DNA of 64,000 nucleotides from Parcubacteria group bacterium Gr01-1014_8. GTDB lineage: Bacteria; Patescibacteriota; Minisyncoccia; Phycocordibacterales; UBA2100. Location: positions 64,001 to 128,000 of the forward strand of contig VMGC01000002.1 in the NCBI GenBank assembly GCA_007376385.1. The letters run 5' to 3'. The translations under genes and the position numbers were made by a program. Of the stretch, positions 1,417 to 53,607 are shown in pieces; positions within the stretch are counted from its first letter, which is position 1; each line of letters begins with the position of its first letter. The notes under the pieces are model-generated. The model had not been told where the DNA came from. It saw nothing but the letters and a program-made list of their open reading frames with translations, and did not search any database.

Positions 1417-1728
1417 AAAGTGACTTCAGGCGGGTACATCGCGCGCATTCTACTACTTAACAGTAATTGACACCAAGCGGGAGGGGTGTTGTATGTGGAA
1501 AACAATATATTTTTTCTCGCACGGATATTTTTTTGCTAAAAAAGTTCGCTCGGTATTCCTCTCGCTGAACCCGAGCGCATATTTCCGGCGATATGTGCCC
1601 TTATGCTTCAACGCGCAACTCCTCACTTCATTCGGAGACCCAGGCTTGCGCGTTTCCAGAGATTCAGCGAGAGGAATACCCGCTTGAATGAAAAATATTT
1701 ATTGGCGAGCGTTGCGAGTGACGCGAAA

Positions 1729-1775
1729 ATGTACTCATTTTCATGTCCGAGCCGGGGAGCCAAAACAGGGTCGAG
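1729..1775 (+). repeat. Conserved ~40-nt element, copy 1: hairpin gaaaatg-tact-cattttc followed by the box TCCGAGCCGGGGAGCCAAAA
   Basis: Same element at 13437-13478 and 50171-50210. Consensus: GTA(A)CTCAyTTyc..TTCCGAGCCGRGGAGYCAG.AAA. Confidence 0.6.
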
Positions 1776-1940
1776 TGCCCTTTATCTGCTATGATGTTTC
1801 GTTATGACCCGGTAGTAGAATTTCGGCTTGTCTTGTCTAAATCGAATAACACAATTAATCTATATATTCAAAGATGACCCTATGACGTTTTTACGACCAC
1901 GACCTGCGCGTCGCGCCAGCCGAAATTCCACTAACCGGGT

Positions 1941-2534
1941 ATGACATGGGTGATCGTTGGCCTCGGAAATCCAGGAGAGGAGTATGAGCATACTCGCCAC
2001 AACACCGGCAGAATGGCTGTCCAGCACTTTGTGCGCTCAAAAAAGATAGGTGAGTGGAAAGAAGATGCAAAAGCGAAGTCGCTTGTCGCGCGAGGCATGG
2101 TTGAACGCTCGCTCGCCGCGTTCGTGTTGCCTGAAACGTTCATGAACAAGTCGGGAGGCGCGCTCACGAAATTCGTAAAGAGCATGAAAGCAGCAGAAAA
2201 TCTCGTTGTGGTCTACGATGAGCTTGATCTGCCTCTTGGAGCGATGAAAATTTCGTATGACCGTGGTAGCGGTGGACACAAAGGCATTGAATCCATCATG
2301 CGTGCAGTCAAAACGAAAAAATTCTGGCGCATTCGCATCGGTGTTTCGCAGTCTACGGCTGGAGGAGAGATAAAAAAACCTCACGGCGGCAAAGCGGTGA
2401 ACGATTTTATACTTGATATATTCAAACCGCACGAACACGCGGTTCTAAAGACCGTATTCAAGCGCGTCGAGAACGCACTCGAAAGTATCATCGTCGACGG
2501 ACCTGAGAGAGCGATGAATCAGTTCAATTCATAA
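1941..2534 (+). CDS. pth: Peptidyl-tRNA hydrolase
   Basis: N-terminal 'WVIVGLGNPGEEYEHTRHNTG' Pth signature; 197 aa. Confidence 0.9.
   Translation: MTWVIVGLGNPGEEYEHTRHNTGRMAVQHFVRSKKIGEWKEDAKAKSLVARGMVERSLAAFVLPETFMNKSGGALTKFVKSMKAAENLVVVYDELDLPLGAMKISYDRGSGGHKGIESIMRAVKTKKFWRIRIGVSQSTAGGEIKKPHGGKAVNDFILDIFKPHEHAVLKTVFKRVENALESIIVDGPERAMNQFNS
2455..2534 (+). repeat. Direct repeat 1 (native pth 3' end); a diverged second copy is at 3775-3851
   Basis: About 75% nucleotide identity over ~78 bp. The copies encode FKRVENALESIIVDGPERAMNQFNS and FKRVEHALETIILDGGMKAMNQFN. Confidence 0.7.
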
Positions 2535-2539
2535 AGCTC

Positions 2540-2992
2540 ATGAGCGAGCAAAAACGTGGCCGCGATAAAACTCCGCCGTTGTCGTTGAAAACGGTACTTA
2601 AAGAAGGAGACATTCTTCTCGAAACATGGCTGGATGCACATCACAAACAATTTCTCGGAAAGGTTGAAATCGAACCGCACGAGGATTTTCATTATCTTCG
2701 TGATACGGAAAGTTTAGTTACAACGAAAGGAATTGCGGGCGTTATGATCGATACGGTGAATCGTTTCCTTGAATCCGAAAAGAAAATAGGACTCCTTACG
2801 GAAGTAATAAGTCCTGATTCTCAGTACGCAAACGGTATGTATGAGCGGCGCGGTTGGAAACGCGTCCATCCGCACATGGCCGTACTGGTATACGTGCCGA
2901 ATGGTCTTAAAACCCCGTCGGCATCTGAGGCATTCGCAATGCGGCGAACGGTGCGTTATTTTGCTCGCCGTTGGCCCAATGCTTCTGATTGA
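2540..2992 (+). CDS. Hypothetical protein inside the pth-tail-flanked insert; weak GNAT-like C-terminal motif (..IGLLTEVISPD..ANGMYERRGW)
   Basis: 150-aa ORF directly after pth. No firm motif. Confidence 0.35.
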   Translation: MSEQKRGRDKTPPLSLKTVLKEGDILLETWLDAHHKQFLGKVEIEPHEDFHYLRDTESLVTTKGIAGVMIDTVNRFLESEKKIGLLTEVISPDSQYANGMYERRGWKRVHPHMAVLVYVPNGLKTPSASEAFAMRRTVRYFARRWPNASD

Positions 2993-3025
2993 ACGACTTA
3001 AGCAACAGGTTTCAGAGTCATCCGA

Positions 3026-3050
3026 ATGTCCGAGGTTCGACCTCGGACAT
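3026..3050. repeat. REP-like 25-nt palindromic hairpin atgtccgagg-ttcga-cctcggacat (left flank of the RAYT gene)
   Basis: 10-bp stem with 5-nt loop. It is the exact reverse complement of the element at 3736-3760. Confidence 0.8.
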
Positions 3051-3057
3051 GTTGTGC

Positions 3058-3735
3058 TTAATCGGTATTAAGCTTGTATGCAAGCCACTCATTTATGTGC
3101 TTTTTGAATTCGGAAGGTGTTGAGAAATATTCCGGCATCGCTTTAGCGTCAATCAGCTTATTTTCAGGACGTTCCACTCCCGAAAAATCGAGATAGCTTG
3201 AATAAGGATACCTTTCTAGAGATTTTAAATTCGCGAGAGCAGACAAAGTCTCCTTTTCAAACGTCTTCGTAAGTGCGACTGGATTCAGATGCACGTACGC
3301 TATGAGGTATTTGAGATACCGATCATCTTTTGCATGAACGGCTTTGAATTTTCCTTGAAGGAGTGCTCCGTTGCGTTCATGTCGTTTGTTGAAATACATC
3401 GTATAGCCTGTTATGACTTTCTGCATGAATTTACTTATCCCGCCCACGCCAATTTCTCGGAGTATCAGGTGAAAATGATTTGGCATGAGGCAATACGCCG
3501 CGACGTCCACAAGTGGAGAGCCACGCGGCAGTTCCAAAGCTTCACGCAGTGAGTATCTACTTAGCCGTTCATCGAGCCGTTCTTCCTGGTTGCAGGAATA
3601 AAGGAGGGTTAGGAACCGCTCATAGTCACCGCGTGAGCTAAAAATCGAGCGCTTCTCGGTTCCCCGATTGTAGACATGATATATCTCATCGCTTGCGAAC
3701 TCTATTTGCCGTGTCACCCGGTGATTATAAAACAA
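3058..3735 (-). CDS. REP-associated tyrosine transposase (RAYT) / IS200-IS605 TnpA-like HUH Y1 transposase
   Basis: 'CLMPNHFHLIL' HuH motif and a C-terminal 'YLIAYVHLNP' tyrosine region. Flanked immediately on both sides by inverted REP hairpins. Confidence 0.8.
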   Translation of the reverse strand: MFYNHRVTRQIEFASDEIYHVYNRGTEKRSIFSSRGDYERFLTLLYSCNQEERLDERLSRYSLREALELPRGSPLVDVAAYCLMPNHFHLILREIGVGGISKFMQKVITGYTMYFNKRHERNGALLQGKFKAVHAKDDRYLKYLIAYVHLNPVALTKTFEKETLSALANLKSLERYPYSSYLDFSGVERPENKLIDAKAMPEYFSTPSEFKKHINEWLAYKLNTD

Positions 3736-3760
3736 ATGTCCGAGGTCGAACCTCGGACAT
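3736..3760. repeat. REP-like 25-nt hairpin atgtccgagg-tcgaa-cctcggacat (right flank of RAYT; inverted copy of 3026-3050)
   Basis: Seen directly. Starts 1 nt upstream of the RAYT start codon. Confidence 0.8.
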
Positions 3761-3774
3761 TGTGGATAAAATAG

Positions 3775-3851
3775 TTTTCAAGCGCGTCGAGCATGCGCTT
3801 GAGACAATTATCCTCGATGGCGGAATGAAAGCGATGAATCAGTTCAACTAG
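3775..3851 (+). pseudogene. Diverged duplicate of the pth 3' coding end (direct repeat 2), ending in TAG
   Basis: Aligns to pth 2455-2534. No upstream pth body, so it is a displaced gene tail. Confidence 0.65.
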
Positions 3852-3898
3852 ATATCCAGAGCGGCAAGATCATGTTGTTTCTGTGCAATAATAAACGC

Positions 3899-4336
3899 AT
3901 GGCGGATCCGTCAGAACAAATGCGACCAAATTATCTGCGTCCAGATCCGGAGCTTGAGATAAAGCAGACTCCTGATGAGTGGGGAGTCTTTTTGGCAACG
4001 AGATCTTTTAATGATATTAAGAGTAGATTCGAATTAGAGATTGGCAACATTGAACGCCGAATTAGTGGTGCAGAGGAAGACATGCGTAATCTCTCAGGAA
4101 AATCAGATGATGTTTCAAGAAAATGGCGTGAATACTCTATGCAAACACTGCAGAGTTGTTTAAACGAAGTAATTCCGGCACGTCTGCCGGGTTTTCAGAG
4201 AGGCGTGGATAGAGTCAATGCACGTCAAGAATTTACCGAACTGCAAAAGGAAGAGATTGCGGCAATCGTCGATAGGCTAAAAATAGCTCGTGGCCAAGCT
4301 GAAAGCGCACTAGCGAAATTTACGCTACCGGCTTGA
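3899..4336 (+). CDS. Hypothetical protein (start taken at MADPSEQ)
   Basis: ORF only; no recognisable motif. Confidence 0.35.
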   Translation: MADPSEQMRPNYLRPDPELEIKQTPDEWGVFLATRSFNDIKSRFELEIGNIERRISGAEEDMRNLSGKSDDVSRKWREYSMQTLQSCLNEVIPARLPGFQRGVDRVNARQEFTELQKEEIAAIVDRLKIARGQAESALAKFTLPA

Positions 4337-5534
4337 GCGTCATCCTTCGCTCCTTGGGTTCGAAGAGCGTGATAGAGAACGGATACACTTTGCCGAGCTC
4401 TAATTTTGCGCGAAGTTCTGCTTCGTCCTTGAATTCAGAGACGTGTACGAGTCCTGCAACGCCTTCTTCGATAGATGCAAGAGCGCCATGCTTGTTGTAT
4501 TTGATGATGACCGCATTCACCGTCTGATCTTTTTTATACTGTGCAGCGGCAGATTTCCACGGGTCGTCGGTGAGCGCCTTTATGGAGAGGGATACTTTAT
4601 CGTCTTTTATCTCGATGACCTTTACATTCACTTTCTCGCCGACTTTGTAGCGAGTTTTAGGATTCTCAACGAGCGCCCAATCCATTTCTGAGATGTGCAC
4701 CAATCCCTCTAAGCCTTCTTCGAGTTTTACGAATACGCCGAAGTCTGTTGCGCCAGTCACGATGCCTTCAAGCGTATCGCCGACGTGATATTTCTCAACA
4801 AGGGAGGAGCGCTCCGTGCTTCCTGCGCCCTTCTCGCTGAAAATAAGTTTTTGTTCTTTCGGATTTGCGGTAATGATGAGAACTTCCAGGCGCTGGCCGA
4901 TAAGTTTTTTCAATTCCACGAATATCTTGTCCTTATCTCCATCCGGCACTCGCGGATAGTGCGCAGGTGCGAGCTGGGAAGCAGGAAGAAATCCCTGCAA
5001 GCCGTTCCAGGCGATGATGAGACCTCCCTTGTTTGCATCAGTGATGGGAAGTTCGAGCACTGTTTTCTTTTGCGATGCTGTTTCCGCCTCGTTCCAGATG
5101 AGCGCTTGGCGCGCTTCGCGGAGAGAGAGCTCAATGTAACCTTCAGTGTTGTCGCTTCCAACGACCTTAGCTGTAACAGTGTCTCCGATGTGAACGTTCT
5201 TGAGAGCCTCTCGTGCAGAGAGGTATTCACGGCCGTAGATAATGCCTGTCCCGAATGGGTGGAGGTCAACGAACACGCGCGCGCGGCCCACCGCAATAAC
5301 GGGTCCTTCGACAACGTCATCATTTGCAGGAGGTTTAGGCGCGCTCTCCATGAGCTCAGCCATCGGGCCCTGCTTTGCTGCCGCTACTGCTTCTTCTTCA
5401 ACGTCTTCGAGCTCTTCCTTTTCCTTAACTTCTTTTATTGCTGTGACCATCGTTGTGTCAGCTGTGGGTACTTCCGCTCCTTCCGTGTCTGTCGCCGAGA
5501 TTTTCTTGACGGCACTCCGTCTTAGAAAATCCAA
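4320..5534 (-). CDS. rpsA: 30S ribosomal protein S1 (four S1 domains, short form)
   Basis: Repeated S1 domains (..GxVxGxVxxIxxFGxFVxL..), e.g. 'GLVHISEMDW', 'GLVHVSEF'. Confidence 0.8.
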   Translation of the reverse strand: MDFLRRSAVKKISATDTEGAEVPTADTTMVTAIKEVKEKEELEDVEEEAVAAAKQGPMAELMESAPKPPANDDVVEGPVIAVGRARVFVDLHPFGTGIIYGREYLSAREALKNVHIGDTVTAKVVGSDNTEGYIELSLREARQALIWNEAETASQKKTVLELPITDANKGGLIIAWNGLQGFLPASQLAPAHYPRVPDGDKDKIFVELKKLIGQRLEVLIITANPKEQKLIFSEKGAGSTERSSLVEKYHVGDTLEGIVTGATDFGVFVKLEEGLEGLVHISEMDWALVENPKTRYKVGEKVNVKVIEIKDDKVSLSIKALTDDPWKSAAAQYKKDQTVNAVIIKYNKHGALASIEEGVAGLVHVSEFKDEAELRAKLELGKVYPFSITLFEPKERRMTLKPVA

Positions 5535-6348: not shown

Positions 6349-6766
6349 ACCGAGCGGTACGTCGCTAAAAGTGTGGCAAAATGGAGATATCCGTTTCTAC
6401 GGCTCGCACTCTATGGTAGTTCAAAAAGCAATCGCTAACTTAAAGGATAAATCGAAGGATGAAAAAAAGGCCGTCGCGAGCGGCATTGCGATCGGCGTTG
6501 TTGCGATCCTTCTAATTGGGTGGGGATTTCTTTTTGTGAAAAAAATCCAGCAGGGCGGAAAGATGAATCTCGGCGGCGGCAGACAGGCAGAGTTCGATTT
6601 TTCGAGTGTTCGTGATGCGCAGGAGCAGTTGAAGCAAGGCATTAATGCTACACAGGATGAGTTGCGGGCGATCCGCGAGTCTGCTGTATCAAATCAAGCG
6701 CCGACCGAACAGCAAGTGGACCCGTATACTCCAGAAGACCAGTTTGGCACGGATGGTTCGTTGTAA
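6341..6766 (+). CDS. Hypothetical membrane-anchored protein
   Basis: Single TM segment (GIAIGVVAILLIGWGFLFV); no motif. Confidence 0.35.
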   Translation: MHKPSGTSLKVWQNGDIRFYGSHSMVVQKAIANLKDKSKDEKKAVASGIAIGVVAILLIGWGFLFVKKIQQGGKMNLGGGRQAEFDFSSVRDAQEQLKQGINATQDELRAIRESAVSNQAPTEQQVDPYTPEDQFGTDGSL

Positions 6767-6995
6767 GTGCTCGACAAGTGGGTGGAGAGGTATCTAATTA
6801 GACGCGGAGGGAGAACACGCCTTGAGCGTGGGTTCTGGATCGTCTGCTCGTGGATGCGTCTAACGCGCCGACTTGCAGATACATTCAGAAATAATCCCTA
6901 CTGAGGGGCTCACGGATCTGGTCTTGCCGTGAGCCTTTCTCCCTATAAAAAAAGCTCCCAAAAAGAGGGATTTTGTGATACAATTTCGCTGATAT

Positions 6996-13199: not shown

Positions 13200-13420
13200 A
13201 AATCACGTATTCGTGCACGCCCATGAACCAATTTTGGTTTTTGACAACCAGATCTAGCGCGTAAGAAATGTAAAGGTGTATGCCATGTCAGCGAACCCGA
13301 GGCGTATTCGAAACGATCGGCCGAACCAAAATTTGGTGCTGGGTTATCCACACAGAACCGACCTTGGCGCCTTTTTGCGCTATCAGGGGGATACAATAAG
13401 ACTACTTACTGGCGACGTAA
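13200..13420 (+). pseudogene. Possible remnant of a deleted pilin paralog: a duplicate of the pilin-4 leader followed by a 12-nt match to the pilin-3 3' end (ggatacaataag), with no pilin body
   Basis: 13215-13350 aligns to 13530-13665 (gcccatgaaccaaYtttgg ... ggccRaaccaaaRtttggtgcKgggttatc). Confidence 0.35.
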
Positions 13421-13436
13421 GGCGAGAGAAACGACA

Positions 13437-13478
13437 GTGTAACTCACTTTCGTTTCCGAGCCGAGGAGCCAGCAAAAA
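13437..13478 (+). repeat. Conserved ~40-nt element, copy 2 (gtgtaactcactttcgtttCCGAGCCGAGGAGCCAGcaaaaa)
   Basis: See copies at 1729 and 50171. Confidence 0.6.
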
Positions 13479-18219: not shown

Positions 18220-18380
18220 ATGTGGGCAAATATAGCAGAGATTATTTGTTTTTGCGCGTCTGCCCGGTGAGTGAATTTCGGCTTGCGCGAAGCGCGTCGC
18301 GGTCGGCAGAACTGAATATTTACCTCGTTGAGGGGACAGGTTAATTATGTTGTGCAGTCTGAACAAGACAAGTCGAAATT

Positions 18381-18710
18381 CTACTTCCGGGTCAGTTCAT
18401 CTATTCGCTGTCGATTTTCTTCCCCAATATCAAGCACAAAATCGACGGTGGGAACGTTCATTAAAACCGTCTTTGCTTTCAAAAAATCGTGAAAGTCGGT
18501 TCGCACGCGCTTAAGGAACGCGATGGCATCTCCTTGCTGCTCCTTCGGAAGCACCGAAACGAATATCGACACATTTTTTAGGTTGGGGGAAATGTCTGCA
18601 CGGGTCACAGTGATGAGAGATTTGCGGTTTGATTCTCGAGCGATGAAGTCAGCTGCGTGGTGCGCCATCGCTTCGGCAACTTTAATTTGTCGGCGGGACG
18701 GAGCGTTCAT
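18381..18710 (-). CDS. rbfA: Ribosome-binding factor A
   Basis: 109 aa, 'R..RV.E.....a..i..e..d.....vTvt.v..s.Dl..a.if' pattern. Confidence 0.75.
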   Translation of the reverse strand: MNAPSRRQIKVAEAMAHHAADFIARESNRKSLITVTRADISPNLKNVSIFVSVLPKEQQGDAIAFLKRVRTDFHDFLKAKTVLMNVPTVDFVLDIGEENRQRIDELTRK

Positions 18711-49125: not shown

Positions 49126-50160
49126 TTGCTCGTCTCTCGTGTTATCGTGCGCAAAATGAAAAACTTCTGGGACACATTGCCGCGCCCTTTTTTCATACAG
49201 GCGCCGATGGAGGATGTGACGGACGCCGCTTTTCGGCGTCTCATCGCACGTTATGGCAAACCGGATGTGATGTTCACAGAGTTCACTTCAGCGGATGGTC
49301 TCGTTCTTGCACCACCTTCAGGACAGAAGATACTGCGGAAAAAGTTGGCGTTTGATGAGAGCGAGAGGCCTGTTGTTGCGCAATTATTTAGCGCGATGCC
49401 GGAGCGTATGGAAAAAGCTGCGGAATTGATAACCGAACTCGGATTCGACGGACTCGATATAAATATGGGTTGTCCAGTGGATGAGGTCGTGAAAAGCGGG
49501 GCAGGGGCCGCACTCATCAACGACCACGAGCTTGCGAGAGAGTTGGTTCGCGCGGCTGACCGAGGGCTCCGATCCGCCGGCCGGCGGATGCCTATCTCGA
49601 TAAAAACACGGATCGGGTATCGCGAAAATGAGCTTGCGTCGTGGCTGCCCGTTCTTTTAGAAGTGGAACCGGCGATGGTGGCAATTCATGCTCGAACTCG
49701 AAACGAAATGTCTGCAGTGCCTGCCAGATGGGACACGGTGAAGGAGGCAGTTCATATTCGAGACCGGCTCGGCTCGAAGACTTTTATTGTCGGCAACGGT
49801 GACGTACGGGATATTTCTCACGCGCGGGAACGCATAAAAGAAAGCGGCGCCGATGGTGTGATGCTCGGGCGAGCTATTTACGGAAATCCTTGGTTGTATT
49901 CAGGCCGGACGGATGCACCGTCCCCGAAAGAGCGCATCAACGCGCTCCTTGAACACCTCTCACTATTCGAAGAATTGATGCAGGGGACAACGAACTATGC
50001 GACCATGAAAAAGCATTTCAAGGCGTACATTTCTGGCTGGCCTGCCTGCCGCGACGAGCACGGCGCAGGCAGGGACGGCGCGAAAGATCTGCGGGTGAGG
50101 CTTATGGAGACGGAAGCGATATCGCAAGCAAGAGAAATTCTTACTGGCGACGTAGAGTGA
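49126..50160 (+). CDS. tRNA-dihydrouridine synthase (Dus family)
   Basis: 'PFFIQAPMEDVTDAAFRRL', 'DINMGCPVDEVVKSGAGAAL'. Confidence 0.8.
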   Translation: MLVSRVIVRKMKNFWDTLPRPFFIQAPMEDVTDAAFRRLIARYGKPDVMFTEFTSADGLVLAPPSGQKILRKKLAFDESERPVVAQLFSAMPERMEKAAELITELGFDGLDINMGCPVDEVVKSGAGAALINDHELARELVRAADRGLRSAGRRMPISIKTRIGYRENELASWLPVLLEVEPAMVAIHARTRNEMSAVPARWDTVKEAVHIRDRLGSKTFIVGNGDVRDISHARERIKESGADGVMLGRAIYGNPWLYSGRTDAPSPKERINALLEHLSLFEELMQGTTNYATMKKHFKAYISGWPACRDEHGAGRDGAKDLRVRLMETEAISQAREILTGDVE

Positions 50161-50164
50161 GAGC

Positions 50165-50188
50165 AGAGAACATGTACTCATGTTCTCT
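50165..50188 (+). terminator. Perfect 10-bp-stem hairpin agagaacatg-tact-catgttctct, 5 nt after the dus stop; forms the 5' part of conserved-element copy 3
   Basis: Seen directly. Followed by a pyrimidine-rich tract. Confidence 0.5.
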
Positions 50189-50210
50189 TCCGAGCCGAGG
50201 AGTCAGAAAC
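50171..50210 (+). repeat. Conserved ~40-nt element, copy 3 (catgtactcatgttctcTTCCGAGCCGAGGAGTCAGaaac)
   Basis: See 1729 and 13437. Confidence 0.6.
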
Positions 50211-53358: not shown

Positions 53359-53607
53359 ATGTTGCCTATTTTGGTTCCTCGGCTCGGAATTGAAAATGAA
53401 TACACTTTCACTTCACTCGCAACGCTCGCCAATAAATATATGGAAAAGATAAAAATTGAACATCACACACTATCAGGAGGTCTCTGGATAGGGGCGTGGC
53501 TGTTCACGATCGGTTTTTTGCACCTAACATTTTGGAAAGGTGTTCTCGCCGTCGTGATATGGCCGTACTACCTCGGTGTTGCATTCGGCGGCTGGGTCCA
53601 CATATGA
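53359..53607 (+). CDS. Small hypothetical membrane protein
   Basis: Two TM segments; immediately upstream of nirK. Confidence 0.3.
   Translation: MLPILVPRLGIENEYTFTSLATLANKYMEKIKIEHHTLSGGLWIGAWLFTIGFLHLTFWKGVLAVVIWPYYLGVAFGGWVHI

Follow-up and report, generated by a model that had tools for sequence, protein, structure and literature searches.

RAYTs are regarded as domesticated, vertically inherited genes, and their REPtrons as not moving as units. Shyamala, Schneider and Ames are said to have described, in 1990, REP sequences at the join points of tandem duplications in enterobacteria, and, to our knowledge, IS200/IS605 elements make no target duplication. The reference REPtron is that of the TnpA(REP)/RAYT proteins of E. 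coli and Pseudomonas, which are class 2 TnpA-Y1 enzymes (PMC6006769, PMC5581495); in this class the Y-motif reads Y---NP, whereas it reads Y---Q in class 1, and atypical REPs that lack a GT[AG]G foot are known from subclasses 2.6 and 3 (PMC6006769). Orphaned 3' regions in T6SS and Rhs arrays have been proposed to result from homology-facilitated illegitimate recombination (PMC5361080).

The locus described here lies in a window of 64,000 nucleotides (the whole stretch of DNA that was analysed) from a Kaiserbacteria-like Patescibacterium, a tiny groundwater bacterium, and is a fast-changing, variable spacer between a pth gene and a convergent S1-domain gene. The features of the locus are the following:

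1941-2534, plus strand: pth, encoding peptidyl-tRNA hydrolase (Pfam PF01195, 173 bits; product identical to the Pth of Gr01-1014_8)
2454-2534, plus strand: tail copy 1, the last 27 codons of pth, collinear with the related loci L031 and L032 together with ORF150
2540-2992, plus strand: ORF150, a divergent GNAT-fold protein (by predicted fold; no Pfam match)
2998-3024, minus strand: orphan 3' end of an S1 gene, 8 codons (RMTLKPVA) and a stop, 1 nt from the left hairpin
3026-3050, no strand: left REP hairpin, ATGTCCGAGGTTCGACCTCGGACAT, 11-bp stem, loop TCG
3058-3735, minus strand: RAYT gene (Y1/HuH, class-2-like; Pfam Y1_Tnp and motifs)
3736-3769, no strand: right REP hairpin with the conserved flank TTGTGGA; the hairpin proper (3736-3760) is the exact reverse complement of the left one, loop CGA
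3765-3851, plus strand: orphan 3' end of pth (tail copy 2), ending in KIVFKRVEHALETIILDGGMKAMNQFN and a stop, with no pth body upstream
3872-4336, plus strand: ORF154, a small ORF and second spacer 'cassette', which overlaps the S1 stop by 17 nt
4320-5534, minus strand: gene for an S1-domain RNA-binding protein (Pfam S1 on the called product; start according to gene callers, 5450)

The two perfect, inverted 25-nt hairpins that the earlier note had described around a Y1/HuH transposase were both confirmed; the two copies differ in the loop only, because the stem is palindromic. As single-stranded DNA, each was predicted to fold at -12 to -13 kcal/mol (z about -5 to -7) into a stem of 11-12 bp closed by a 3-nt loop. 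No further copy was found in the window, as had been claimed: at up to three mismatches these were the only 2 matches in 64 kb, with 0 expected from shuffles, and the hairpin core had no third copy in the window or in the 8 kb upstream (72 kb of the source genome covered). In the sister genome GCA_964373725.1, at least 10 exact copies were located on 8 contigs, dispersed without a RAYT and in some cases inside long ORFs, and 4 copies of the window hairpin were found in JACRFH01 by a scan of GTDB representatives, to which Gr01-1014_8 does not belong. No GT[AG]G foot was present 5' of the stems, which begin with ATGTCC or GTGTCC, and the family consensus also lacks GTAG. The position of the left hairpin fits a terminator-like pattern after ORF150, and a search of the window with Rfam returned tRNAs only.

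The enzyme between the hairpins carries the signatures of class 2 TnpA(REP): an HuH motif with a hydrophobic middle residue (PNHFHLIL, H87-F-H89) and Y---NP (YVHLNP, Y147-VHL-N151-P152). Residues H87, H89, Y147, N151 and P152 were invariant in an alignment with 16 relatives. Among sequence models, Pfam Y1_Tnp passed marginally (24.1 bits against a cut-off of 23), NCBIfam REP_Tyr_transpos stayed under its cut-off (39.6 bits against 80), a profile search of the PDB gave a weak match to 4ER8 in which the HuH and Y motifs were aligned (E = 0.23; ISDra2 TnpA was similar), phmmer against the PDB gave no matches, and a single-sequence structure model was unusable (pLDDT 37). The earlier note had placed the hairpins directly against the stop and start codons. 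This holds for a TTG at 3735, which abuts the right hairpin, but the stop lies 7 nt from the left hairpin, and the probable start, as judged by alignment with relatives, is a GTG at 3717, 18 nt inside the right hairpin. With a dN/dS of about 0.10 between the window and the related locus L005, the gene is under purifying selection.

The hairpin-gene-hairpin layout was repeated at dozens of loci of the same family. Among 83 loci, a hairpin was detected upstream at 65 of 79 and downstream at 66 of 74, and 57 loci had both. An inverted orientation was considered as a family rule and rejected, the two loops having the same orientation at 24 loci, an inverted one at 21 and another arrangement at 12. 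The family hairpins follow the consensus NNN[A/G]AGGT-NNN-ACCT[T/C]NNN, with an invariant AGG/CCT apex, a T/A closing pair in 64 of 67 and a 3-nt loop; those of the window are of the ATGTCCGAGG type. The family is large, with matches to 18,654 clusters at 50% identity at E <= 0.001, and its members are common in groundwater Patescibacteria. A literature search found no paper that connects RAYTs with Patescibacteria. The window RAYT and its hairpins form an ordinary member of a very large, apparently undescribed Patescibacterial RAYT family, and the class-2 signatures, the family layout and the dispersal of the same hairpin in the sister genome bear out the earlier description of the locus as a minimal REPtron.

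None of 80 metagenome RAYT loci adjoined pth or S1, and among 46 such loci with both flanks available, long flanking repeats came only from paralogous pilin or LamG genes; orphan gene tails are therefore not a trait of the family. In the window, hairpin, RAYT and hairpin make up a module of 744 bp (3026-3769). Its similarity to the module of L005 (82%) begins at the left hairpin, at its base, and ends 9 nt beyond the right one (3769), and a flank CATTGKGGA at the right hairpin is common to both. In both loci, relics of neighbouring genes start at the module ends.

The relic on the right is a second pth 3' end. As the earlier note had observed, two diverged tails are present, the second beyond the RAYT: positions 2454-2527 and 3774-3847 are 76% identical over 74 nt. 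The topology that the note had described also holds, with pth completed by one tail and a displaced tail left behind. The peptides AMNQFN and VFKRVE each occurred only at the two tails in a six-frame translation of the window. The limits of the second tail (about 3765 to 3851) were set by comparison with relatives. Its closest match is the pth tail of the related locus L009 (85% identity), with which it has the residues GGM in common, as against 75% identity to tail 1; among 25 codons compared, 8 differ synonymously only and 6 change the residue.

On the left, the last codons of an S1 gene, overlooked in the earlier note, stand against the hairpin. In the six-frame translation, RMTLKPVA and its stop occurred only here and at the real S1 end (4320-4346). 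The relic shares 20 of 27 nt with the real tail and 22 of 27 with the tails of L031 and L003, the peptide being identical; all 7 nt differences from the live tail are silent. Both relics remain perfect coding sequence, with frame and stop intact, and most of their differences from the live ends are synonymous. They were therefore once functional gene ends in diverged lineages, and are not decayed duplicates made in situ.

The spacer varied widely among relatives. It was empty in the P0014 contig, where pth and S1 are 199 bp apart, and contained one small unrelated ORF in L003, L009, L114, L117 and L031; among these single-ORF spacers, only the ORFs of L003 and L009 resembled each other. L017 and L113 contained a small ORF and a RAYT next to S1, with a single pth tail and no orphan tails. 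ORF117 was found with a RAYT in L113 and without one in L003. The S1 gene is 78-82% identical to its relatives at the nucleotide level. ORF150 had two homologues in 5.8 billion proteins (70% and 66% amino acid identity), both directly 3' of pth: one in L031, which reads pth-ORF150-S1 without a RAYT, and one in L032, beside a RAYT. Its structure model, of medium confidence (pLDDT 67), resembled GCN5/RimI/AAC folds with a TM of about 0.45-0.5. ORF154 matched only itself in 5.8 billion proteins and belonged to no Pfam or NCBIfam family, and ORF150 and ORF154 had no similarity to each other.

L005, from a sister genome, has the same topology as the window. Its order is pth, GNAT180, an S1 tail of 124 nt, REP, RAYT, REPs, a GNAT tail of 26 nt and S1, with a perfect 167-bp direct repeat against both ends of the module (the scaffold contains a run of N, and the assembly may be imperfect). 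ORF150 and the L005 GNAT had no significant sequence similarity and agreed in predicted fold only.

Synonymous divergence was then compared along the locus. For the RAYT gene, pS between the window and L005 was 0.49 [0.40-0.57], against 0.74 [0.71-0.78] for the pooled core genes, which are at saturation, so that relative ages are rough; HisRS, which had been compared out of frame, was left out of the table. For ORF150, pS between the window and L032 was 0.51 [0.40-0.62], against 0.75 [0.63-0.88] for the adjacent 3' part of pth. Both genes have a lower synonymous divergence than the core genes beside them, and the spacer therefore exchanges DNA between lineages; the module, in particular, would have been exchanged after the lineages of the window and L005 split. 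A comparison of the 5' and 3' halves of pth against five relatives, for mosaicism, found all pairs saturated at silent sites. The suggestion in the earlier note that the REP-RAYT pair was a recent arrival stands only in part: the association is not new, since a RAYT is present here even in lineages with a Pth identity of only about 62-65%, but the module was exchanged later, as its lower pS indicates.

ORF150 had been described as cargo of a 1.24-kb insert together with the RAYT; however, it follows pth in the RAYT-less L031, and the RAYT beside it in L032 is only 38% identical to that of the window at the amino acid level, i.e., of a different subtype. ORF150, found without a RAYT and with two RAYT subtypes, is thus a GNAT-like part of the variable spacer and not cargo of the RAYT. 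This distribution, like that of ORF117, also speaks for an exchange of DNA between lineages at the locus.

Taken together, the alignments place the REPtron (3026-3769) exactly at the join of two overlapping blocks of the form pth-small gene-S1. The left block runs from pth through ORF150 to 27 nt of S1, and is collinear with the RAYT-less haplotype L031: window positions 1936-3023 align unbroken to L031 946-2033, of which the last part (2008-2033) is, in L031, also where the S1 gene starts. The right block consists of the last ~87 nt of a pth, ORF154 and a complete S1. A donor of the form pth-ORF154-S1 was not found among the relatives because ORF154 has none, and we thus infer that this block came from another, unsampled haplotype. 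The blocks follow other haplotypes as far as the hairpin edges, and a short candidate microhomology, ATCC, is shared at the left junction.

The explanation that we favour, to which we give about an even chance, is that alternative haplotypes recombined one-sidedly and were joined at the hairpin edges, rather than an integrase-like insertion into pth. When DNA of relatives recombined into the locus, homology within pth or S1 would have anchored one of its ends, and the other would have been joined, illegitimately, to a REP hairpin at its outer edge. The process would be homology-facilitated illegitimate recombination; equivalently, a break would have been repaired from a RAYT-less template, and the repair would have run on into the conserved gene that follows. 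Every event would add a cassette, and the donor's gene on the far side would stay behind as a short relic beside the hairpin. Hairpin edges might be preferred as joints because the RAYT nicks single-stranded DNA there, which is speculative, as is the assumption that this organism undergoes natural transformation and that its RAYT nicks at the hairpins. Applied to both loci, one-sided recombination requires a pair of separate events in the window and another pair in L005, each of which must have ended at the edge of a hairpin.

The perfect 167-bp repeat of L005 would be explained more simply by a single event, and a REPtron that moved as a unit and made the duplication in one step, which we consider unlikely, could provide it. 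It would have inserted at widely staggered breaks, with a long duplication of the target as the result, or an unequal crossover would have taken place between module copies at two nearby sites on different chromosomes, so that the element ends up at the join of the duplication. The direct repeat abuts both module ends in L005, the same discrete ends recur in the window, the pS of the RAYT is under that of the core genes, and different RAYT subtypes occupy the same locus, all of which would agree with such a movement. However, the 'copies' in the window contain the unrelated ORF150 and ORF154, and most differences between the two tails are silent, so that at no time did a single genome have them as one sequence. 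Furthermore, an unequal crossover requires parents with a truncated pth or S1, the insertion points in the window and L005 have no target motif in common, and REPtrons are not known to transpose as units (PMC6006769). A broader proposal combines movement with recombination: REP-RAYT-REP would be a mobile unit with defined ends, passing from one Patescibacterial genome to another, whose RAYT-nicked edges capture incoming DNA, and hence a cassette-accreting platform at convergent gene junctions, where spare 3' ends keep the essential neighbours intact. We regard it as distinctly doubtful.

The earlier note had itself proposed that an element inserted into pth while carrying a replacement 3' end. 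In its full form, which now seems quite improbable, a 1.24-kb element (pth tail, ORF150 and REP-RAYT-REP) would have integrated into the pth 3' end of a pth-ORF154-S1 chromosome by Campbell-type or site-specific recombination, in the manner of elements at tRNA genes, and would have displaced the native tail downstream. The direct pth-tail repeats do flank 2535-3764, with tail 1 completing the gene; there are relatives with only one tail and without a RAYT (L003, L009), the combination of tail 1 and ORF150 recurs in L031 and L032, and ORF150 is younger than the adjacent pth by its pS. Nevertheless, no integrase was found within 2535-3851, where the only match to a Pfam or NCBIfam family was Y1_Tnp and the sole enzyme of the segment is thus the Y1 protein, and the repeats, at 76% identity, have no identical core. 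The S1 relic inside the supposed element is left unexplained, ORF150 follows pth without any RAYT in L031, L005 duplicates S1 and GNAT ends and not that of pth, and L017 and L113 have a RAYT at this locus yet one pth tail. As stated, the proposal is not supported.

If the spacer had been duplicated in tandem in situ, and each copy had then diverged and turned over its genes, both gene ends would be directly repeated around the module, as they are, but this course is highly improbable: an unselected orphan should gain random changes, whereas the relics keep frame and stop with mostly or wholly silent differences, tail 2 is closer to the L009 tail than to tail 1, and ORF150 and ORF154 are without similarity. 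Finally, a chimeric assembly of co-existing strains, conceivable for a metagenome-assembled genome given that several spacer haplotypes co-exist in nature, is the least credible account, because two further assembly records (possibly not independent, perhaps from the same sample) match the sequence at 100% identity over 12.5 kb, the relic-hairpin junctions are unique sequence, and the repeats are short and 74-76% alike and cannot mislead an assembler, misassembly through the pth tails being excluded by their identity of only 76%.

The REP/RAYT system is thereby extended to ultra-small bacteria by a large family with its own hairpin type, whose module appears, at this one locus, to have been exchanged between lineages, with a synonymous divergence below that of the core genes next to it. 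The position of the module coincides exactly with the apparent recombination joints, and two essential genes are preserved via spare 3' ends. If hairpin edges are the joints, as one-sided recombination would have it, the locus provides a concrete in vivo readout of RAYT activity and shows how compact genomes may gain small genes without disrupting their neighbours; if they are not, it is an ordinary REPtron in a recombination hot spot.

Compared with the REPtrons of E. coli and Pseudomonas, the window has the same HuH and Y---NP motifs, cognate palindromic hairpins on both sides and purifying selection, and the hairpin is scattered without the gene in the sister genome. Unlike those RAYTs, proteins of the window family have 220-230 amino acids with a conserved C-terminal extension, and the window protein falls under the NCBIfam equivalog cut-off, with an E of about 0.2 to 4ER8. 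The hairpins, in contrast to those REPs, have an AGG/CCT apex and a 3-nt loop with no GT[AG]G foot, their copy number is very low (2 in 72 kb, about 10 in the sister genome), and there are signs of whole-module exchange between lineages. As in IS200/IS605, a Y1 HuH enzyme lies between subterminal hairpins and the module ends are discrete, at or near the hairpins; unlike in those elements, the motif in the window is Y---NP rather than Y---Q, no tnpB-like ORF was found near the RAYT, and the window contains no second copy of the gene.

The organization also recalls Rhs, CDI and T6SS effector-immunity arrays (PMC5361080), in which an incoming module, anchored in a conserved gene, delivers a cassette along with a new 3' end, the displaced 3' end stays as a downstream orphan, and haplotypes of different lineages end up as a mosaic. 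Here, however, the genes are housekeeping genes (pth, S1) and not polymorphic toxins, orphans are found on both sides of the module, and the joints coincide with REP hairpins. Integrative elements at tRNA and tmRNA 3' ends likewise have one 3'-end copy that completes the gene and a displaced copy beyond the inserted DNA, but the locus has no integrase, no identical core (attL/attR) and no coherent element, ORF150 occurring without the RAYT. As in the REP-joined duplications of enterobacteria, a REP lies at the join between duplicated segments; whereas those duplications are large and involve two distant REP sites in one genome, the blocks in the window are short and come from diverged lineages.

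The spacer between pth and the convergent gene of an S1-domain RNA-binding protein (S1) was found to run in the order pth (tail 1), ORF150, S1 tail relic, hairpin, RAYT (a domesticated Y1/HuH transposase gene), hairpin, pth tail relic, ORF154, S1. Its features are as follows.

1941-2534, plus strand: pth (Pfam PF01195)
2540-2992, plus strand: ORF150, 150 aa, directly after pth
2998-3024, minus strand: S1 tail relic (RMTLKPVA and stop), 1 nt from the left hairpin
3026-3050: left hairpin, 25 nt, ATGTCCGAGGTTCGACCTCGGACAT
3058-3735, minus strand: RAYT, Y1 transposase ORF (Pfam Y1_Tnp 24.1 bits, cut-off 23)
3736-3760: right hairpin, exact reverse complement of ATGTCCGAGGTTCGACCTCGGACAT
3774-3847: second pth 3' end (tail 2), 76% identical to 2454-2527
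4320-4346: true S1 end (RMTLKPVA and stop)

The hairpin with its exact reverse complement around the transposase and the second pth 3' end downstream, both described in the earlier note, were thus recovered. Two other assembly records match the first 12.5 kb of the window at 100% identity, and the source, Parcubacteria group bacterium Gr01-1014_8, has Candidatus Kaiserbacteria as its closest named relatives. Just upstream of pth lies one copy (1695-1769, plus strand) of a conserved element of about 70 nt, TTAYTGGCGA...GTGTAaCTCAT.TTC..TTCCGAGCCGAGGAGCCA, also found at 13394-13475 (plus), 50129-50209 (plus), and 53365-53439 (minus); it has no match in Rfam, and its possible identities are a common promoter, a leader, or a small RNA. 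The region just upstream of pth (1805-1903) is also 71% complementary to 18296-18394, some 16 kb distant, the two forming an inverted repeat of 99 nt. A short motif, TCTCACGGGGTAT, possibly with a regulatory or promoter-linked role, occurs on both strands at about 12111, 20422, 21857, 30600, 39614, 46200, 50222, and 63568.

A six-frame translation of the window contained RMTLKPVA nowhere but in the S1 relic and at the true end of S1. Over its 27 nt, the relic agrees with the live S1 end at 20 positions and with the S1 tails of two relatives, L031 and L003, at 22, all differences being silent. Tail 2 retains its frame and stop; it differs from tail 1 at 19 of 75 nt (8 codons changed synonymously only, 6 with a residue change) and shares 85% identity, and the residues GGM, with the pth tail of another relative, L009. 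Window positions 1936-3023 moreover align in one uninterrupted stretch with 946-2033 of L031, of which 2008-2033 already belong to the S1 gene of that genome, as its 3' end. Neither relic resembles an unselected copy decaying in place, and both look like the ends of working genes from other lineages. The topology of the relics and their foreign origin are shown.

The spacer was then compared among relatives.

P0014 contig: no gene called between pth and S1, 199 bp apart
L003, L009, L114, L117: one small minus-strand ORF between pth and S1
L031: ORF150 between pth and S1
L113: ORF117 and a RAYT of another subtype, no relics
L017 (Pth 62-65% identical): ORF136 and a RAYT 69-70% identical to that of the window, no relics
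L005 (sister genome GCA_964373725.1): GNAT180, 124 nt of S1 tail, hairpin, RAYT, hairpins, 26 nt of GNAT tail, S1

Similarity between the window and L005 (82% at the nucleotide level) extends from the base of the left hairpin to 9 nt past the right one and ends after a common flank, CATTGKGGA; in both genomes, the relics start where it ends. These limits define a 744-bp module (3026-3769) with fixed ends, which in two genomes sits where two overlapping spacer blocks meet. Since the S1 breakpoints differ (27 nt in the window, 124 nt in L005), the events were independent.

The earlier note had taken ORF150 for cargo carried along with the transposase, a reading contradicted by L031, where the order is pth-ORF150-S1 without a RAYT and 3 nt separate the two stop codons. 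Only two ORF150 homologues were found among 5.8 billion proteins, each directly after pth; in the second, L032, hairpins and a RAYT follow, the latter only 38% identical to that of the window over the C-terminal 91 residues. A structure model of ORF150 of medium confidence (pLDDT 67) resembles GNAT acetyltransferases. No relative of ORF154 was found anywhere in the protein search, so its haplotype of origin is unsampled. Silent sites of core genes are saturated between the window and L005 (pooled pS 0.74 [0.71-0.78], 1,547 codons), whereas RAYT gives a pS of 0.49 [0.40-0.57] with a dN/dS of about 0.1; likewise, ORF150 against L032 gives 0.51 [0.40-0.62] and the adjacent 3' part of pth 0.75 [0.63-0.88]. 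Cassettes and RAYT subtypes are combined variably: one cassette can accompany differing subtypes or stand without a RAYT, and one subtype can accompany differing cassettes. This reshuffling, together with the lower pS, indicates that the spacer is a hot spot of gene flow among diverged lineages.

The locus pattern is more interesting than the earlier note saw, and its mechanism we can only infer. For the relic-hairpin joints, we favour one-sided recombination with joints at the hairpin edges. Homology in pth or S1 would hold one end of a strand arriving from a relative, and the opposite end would join illegitimately at a hairpin edge; equivalently, a break would be repaired off a RAYT-less template, copying on into the next conserved gene. 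A published proposal invokes the same mechanism to explain how 3' regions came to be orphaned in T6SS and Rhs arrays (PMC5361080). This mechanism would account for the window and L005 by a single process, and L017 and L113 would lack relics because no such events took place there. Speculatively, nicking by RAYT might render the hairpin edges recombinogenic. One weakness of one-sided recombination is that several events are required, all terminating at hairpins. Another is L005, where a perfect 167-bp direct repeat adjoins both ends of the module and resembles the product of one event; this repeat borders a gap in the scaffold. The main rival explanation, in which the module moved as a unit and created the duplication, fits L005 but not the window, whose two blocks carry unrelated ORFs and tails from different lineages. 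Insertion of an integrative element into pth with a replacement 3' end, as first proposed, is weakened and mostly wrong, given the RAYT-less ORF150, the lack of an integrase, repeats only 76% identical, and an S1 relic left unexplained.

The RAYT protein has the HuH motif H87-F-H89 and the Y motif Y147-x3-N151-P152; Y---NP is the signature of class 2 TnpA(REP) proteins and Y---Q that of IS200 transposases (PMC6006769). A profile of 16 sequences matched the E. coli TnpA(REP) structure 4ER8 at E = 0.23 only, with the HuH and Y motifs aligned. Among 1.84 billion cluster representatives, the family comprises 18,654 clusters at E ≤ 0.001 and 332 at E ≤ 1e-30, matches being mostly 210-240 aa long, and at least 395 relatives were confirmed in a JGI metagenome scan. 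Our literature search found no papers tying RAYTs to Patescibacteria. The hairpins flank the ORF as noted earlier, with one minor correction: alignment with relatives places the likely start at a GTG (3717), 18 nt from the right hairpin. Between that GTG and the hairpin (3717-3735, minus strand), 6 nt before the start codon, lies a perfect TATAAT, whose position suggests that the promoter may be leaderless or overlap the hairpin and that the gene may regulate itself, although a generic sigma-70 scan found no full promoter there. On two Patescibacterial contigs, a RAYT lies between tandem paralogues, type IV pilin-like genes (L092, 932-1304 and 2289-2658) and LamG-domain surface proteins (L089, 3254-3843 and 7157-7743); RAYTs may prefer variable, repeat-rich neighbourhoods.

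Folded as single strands of DNA, the two window hairpins each have a stem of 11-12 bp and a loop of 3 nt. As the earlier note had it, the 64 kb hold no other copy, even with 3 mismatches allowed (0 matches expected), nor do the 8 kb upstream. The exact hairpin is dispersed in sister genomes: in a genome collection that does not include the source genome, GCA_964373725.1 has at least 10 exact copies, spread over 8 contigs, and Kaiserbacteria JACRFH01 has 4. Across 83 family loci (stem of at least 7 bp, 3-nt loop), a hairpin was found upstream in 65 of the 79 with enough flank, downstream in 66 of 74, and on both sides in 57, at median distances from the protein-match ends of 37 nt upstream and 21 nt downstream. 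The apex AGG/CCT is invariant, a T/A pair closes 64 of 67 hairpins, and all four Watson-Crick pairs occur in the outer stem; the pairing itself is partly by construction, the hairpins having been selected as palindromes. The paired loops point the same way at 24 loci and are inverted at 21, with 12 loci showing other arrangements, so a perfectly inverted layout is not a rule.

Copies of the REP hairpin within long ORFs (L020 5342-5358; L025 386-452, three in tandem; L030 7700-7716; L023 7763-7779), and one within a RAYT gene itself (L113 2455-2479), are unusual for "extragenic" palindromes. Right of the L005 RAYT (6620-6850), a stretch of N has tandem 19-nt half-hairpin units, GAACCTCGGACATTGGGGA, on either side, which represent a genuine REP array or else an assembly artefact. 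Inverted repeats of another type, TAGCTTCTAGGTGCTAGCTTCTAG, bracket the small pth-S1 gene in several relatives (L003 2484-2515, 3005-3050; L009 6594-6625, 7065-7100; L113 1524-1550; L005 5193-5223, 5760-5790, 6868-6898, with more intergenic copies at 2410, 4508, 4565, and 9061). They form a second dispersed repeat family of the relatives, absent from the window.

With regard to known systems, the locus is not an integrase-type island and the module is not an IS200/IS605 element. The orphan tails are like C-terminal displacement scars in how they work, but differ in that housekeeping genes are affected, that there are tails on either side of the module, and that their positions coincide with REP hairpins. 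The minimal REPtron of the earlier note stands on the class 2 motifs and flanking hairpins; its RAYT classification holds for the Y---NP signature but not for the NCBIfam REP_Tyr_transpos equivalog (39.6 bits, cut-off 80). The module is thus a class-2-like RAYT REPtron in the sense of PMC6006769, by its motifs, its flanking hairpins, and the REP dispersal seen for its hairpin type in a sister genome, and differs in the equivalog score and in the absent GT[AG]G foot; it comes from a lineage whose REP is atypical in lacking that foot.
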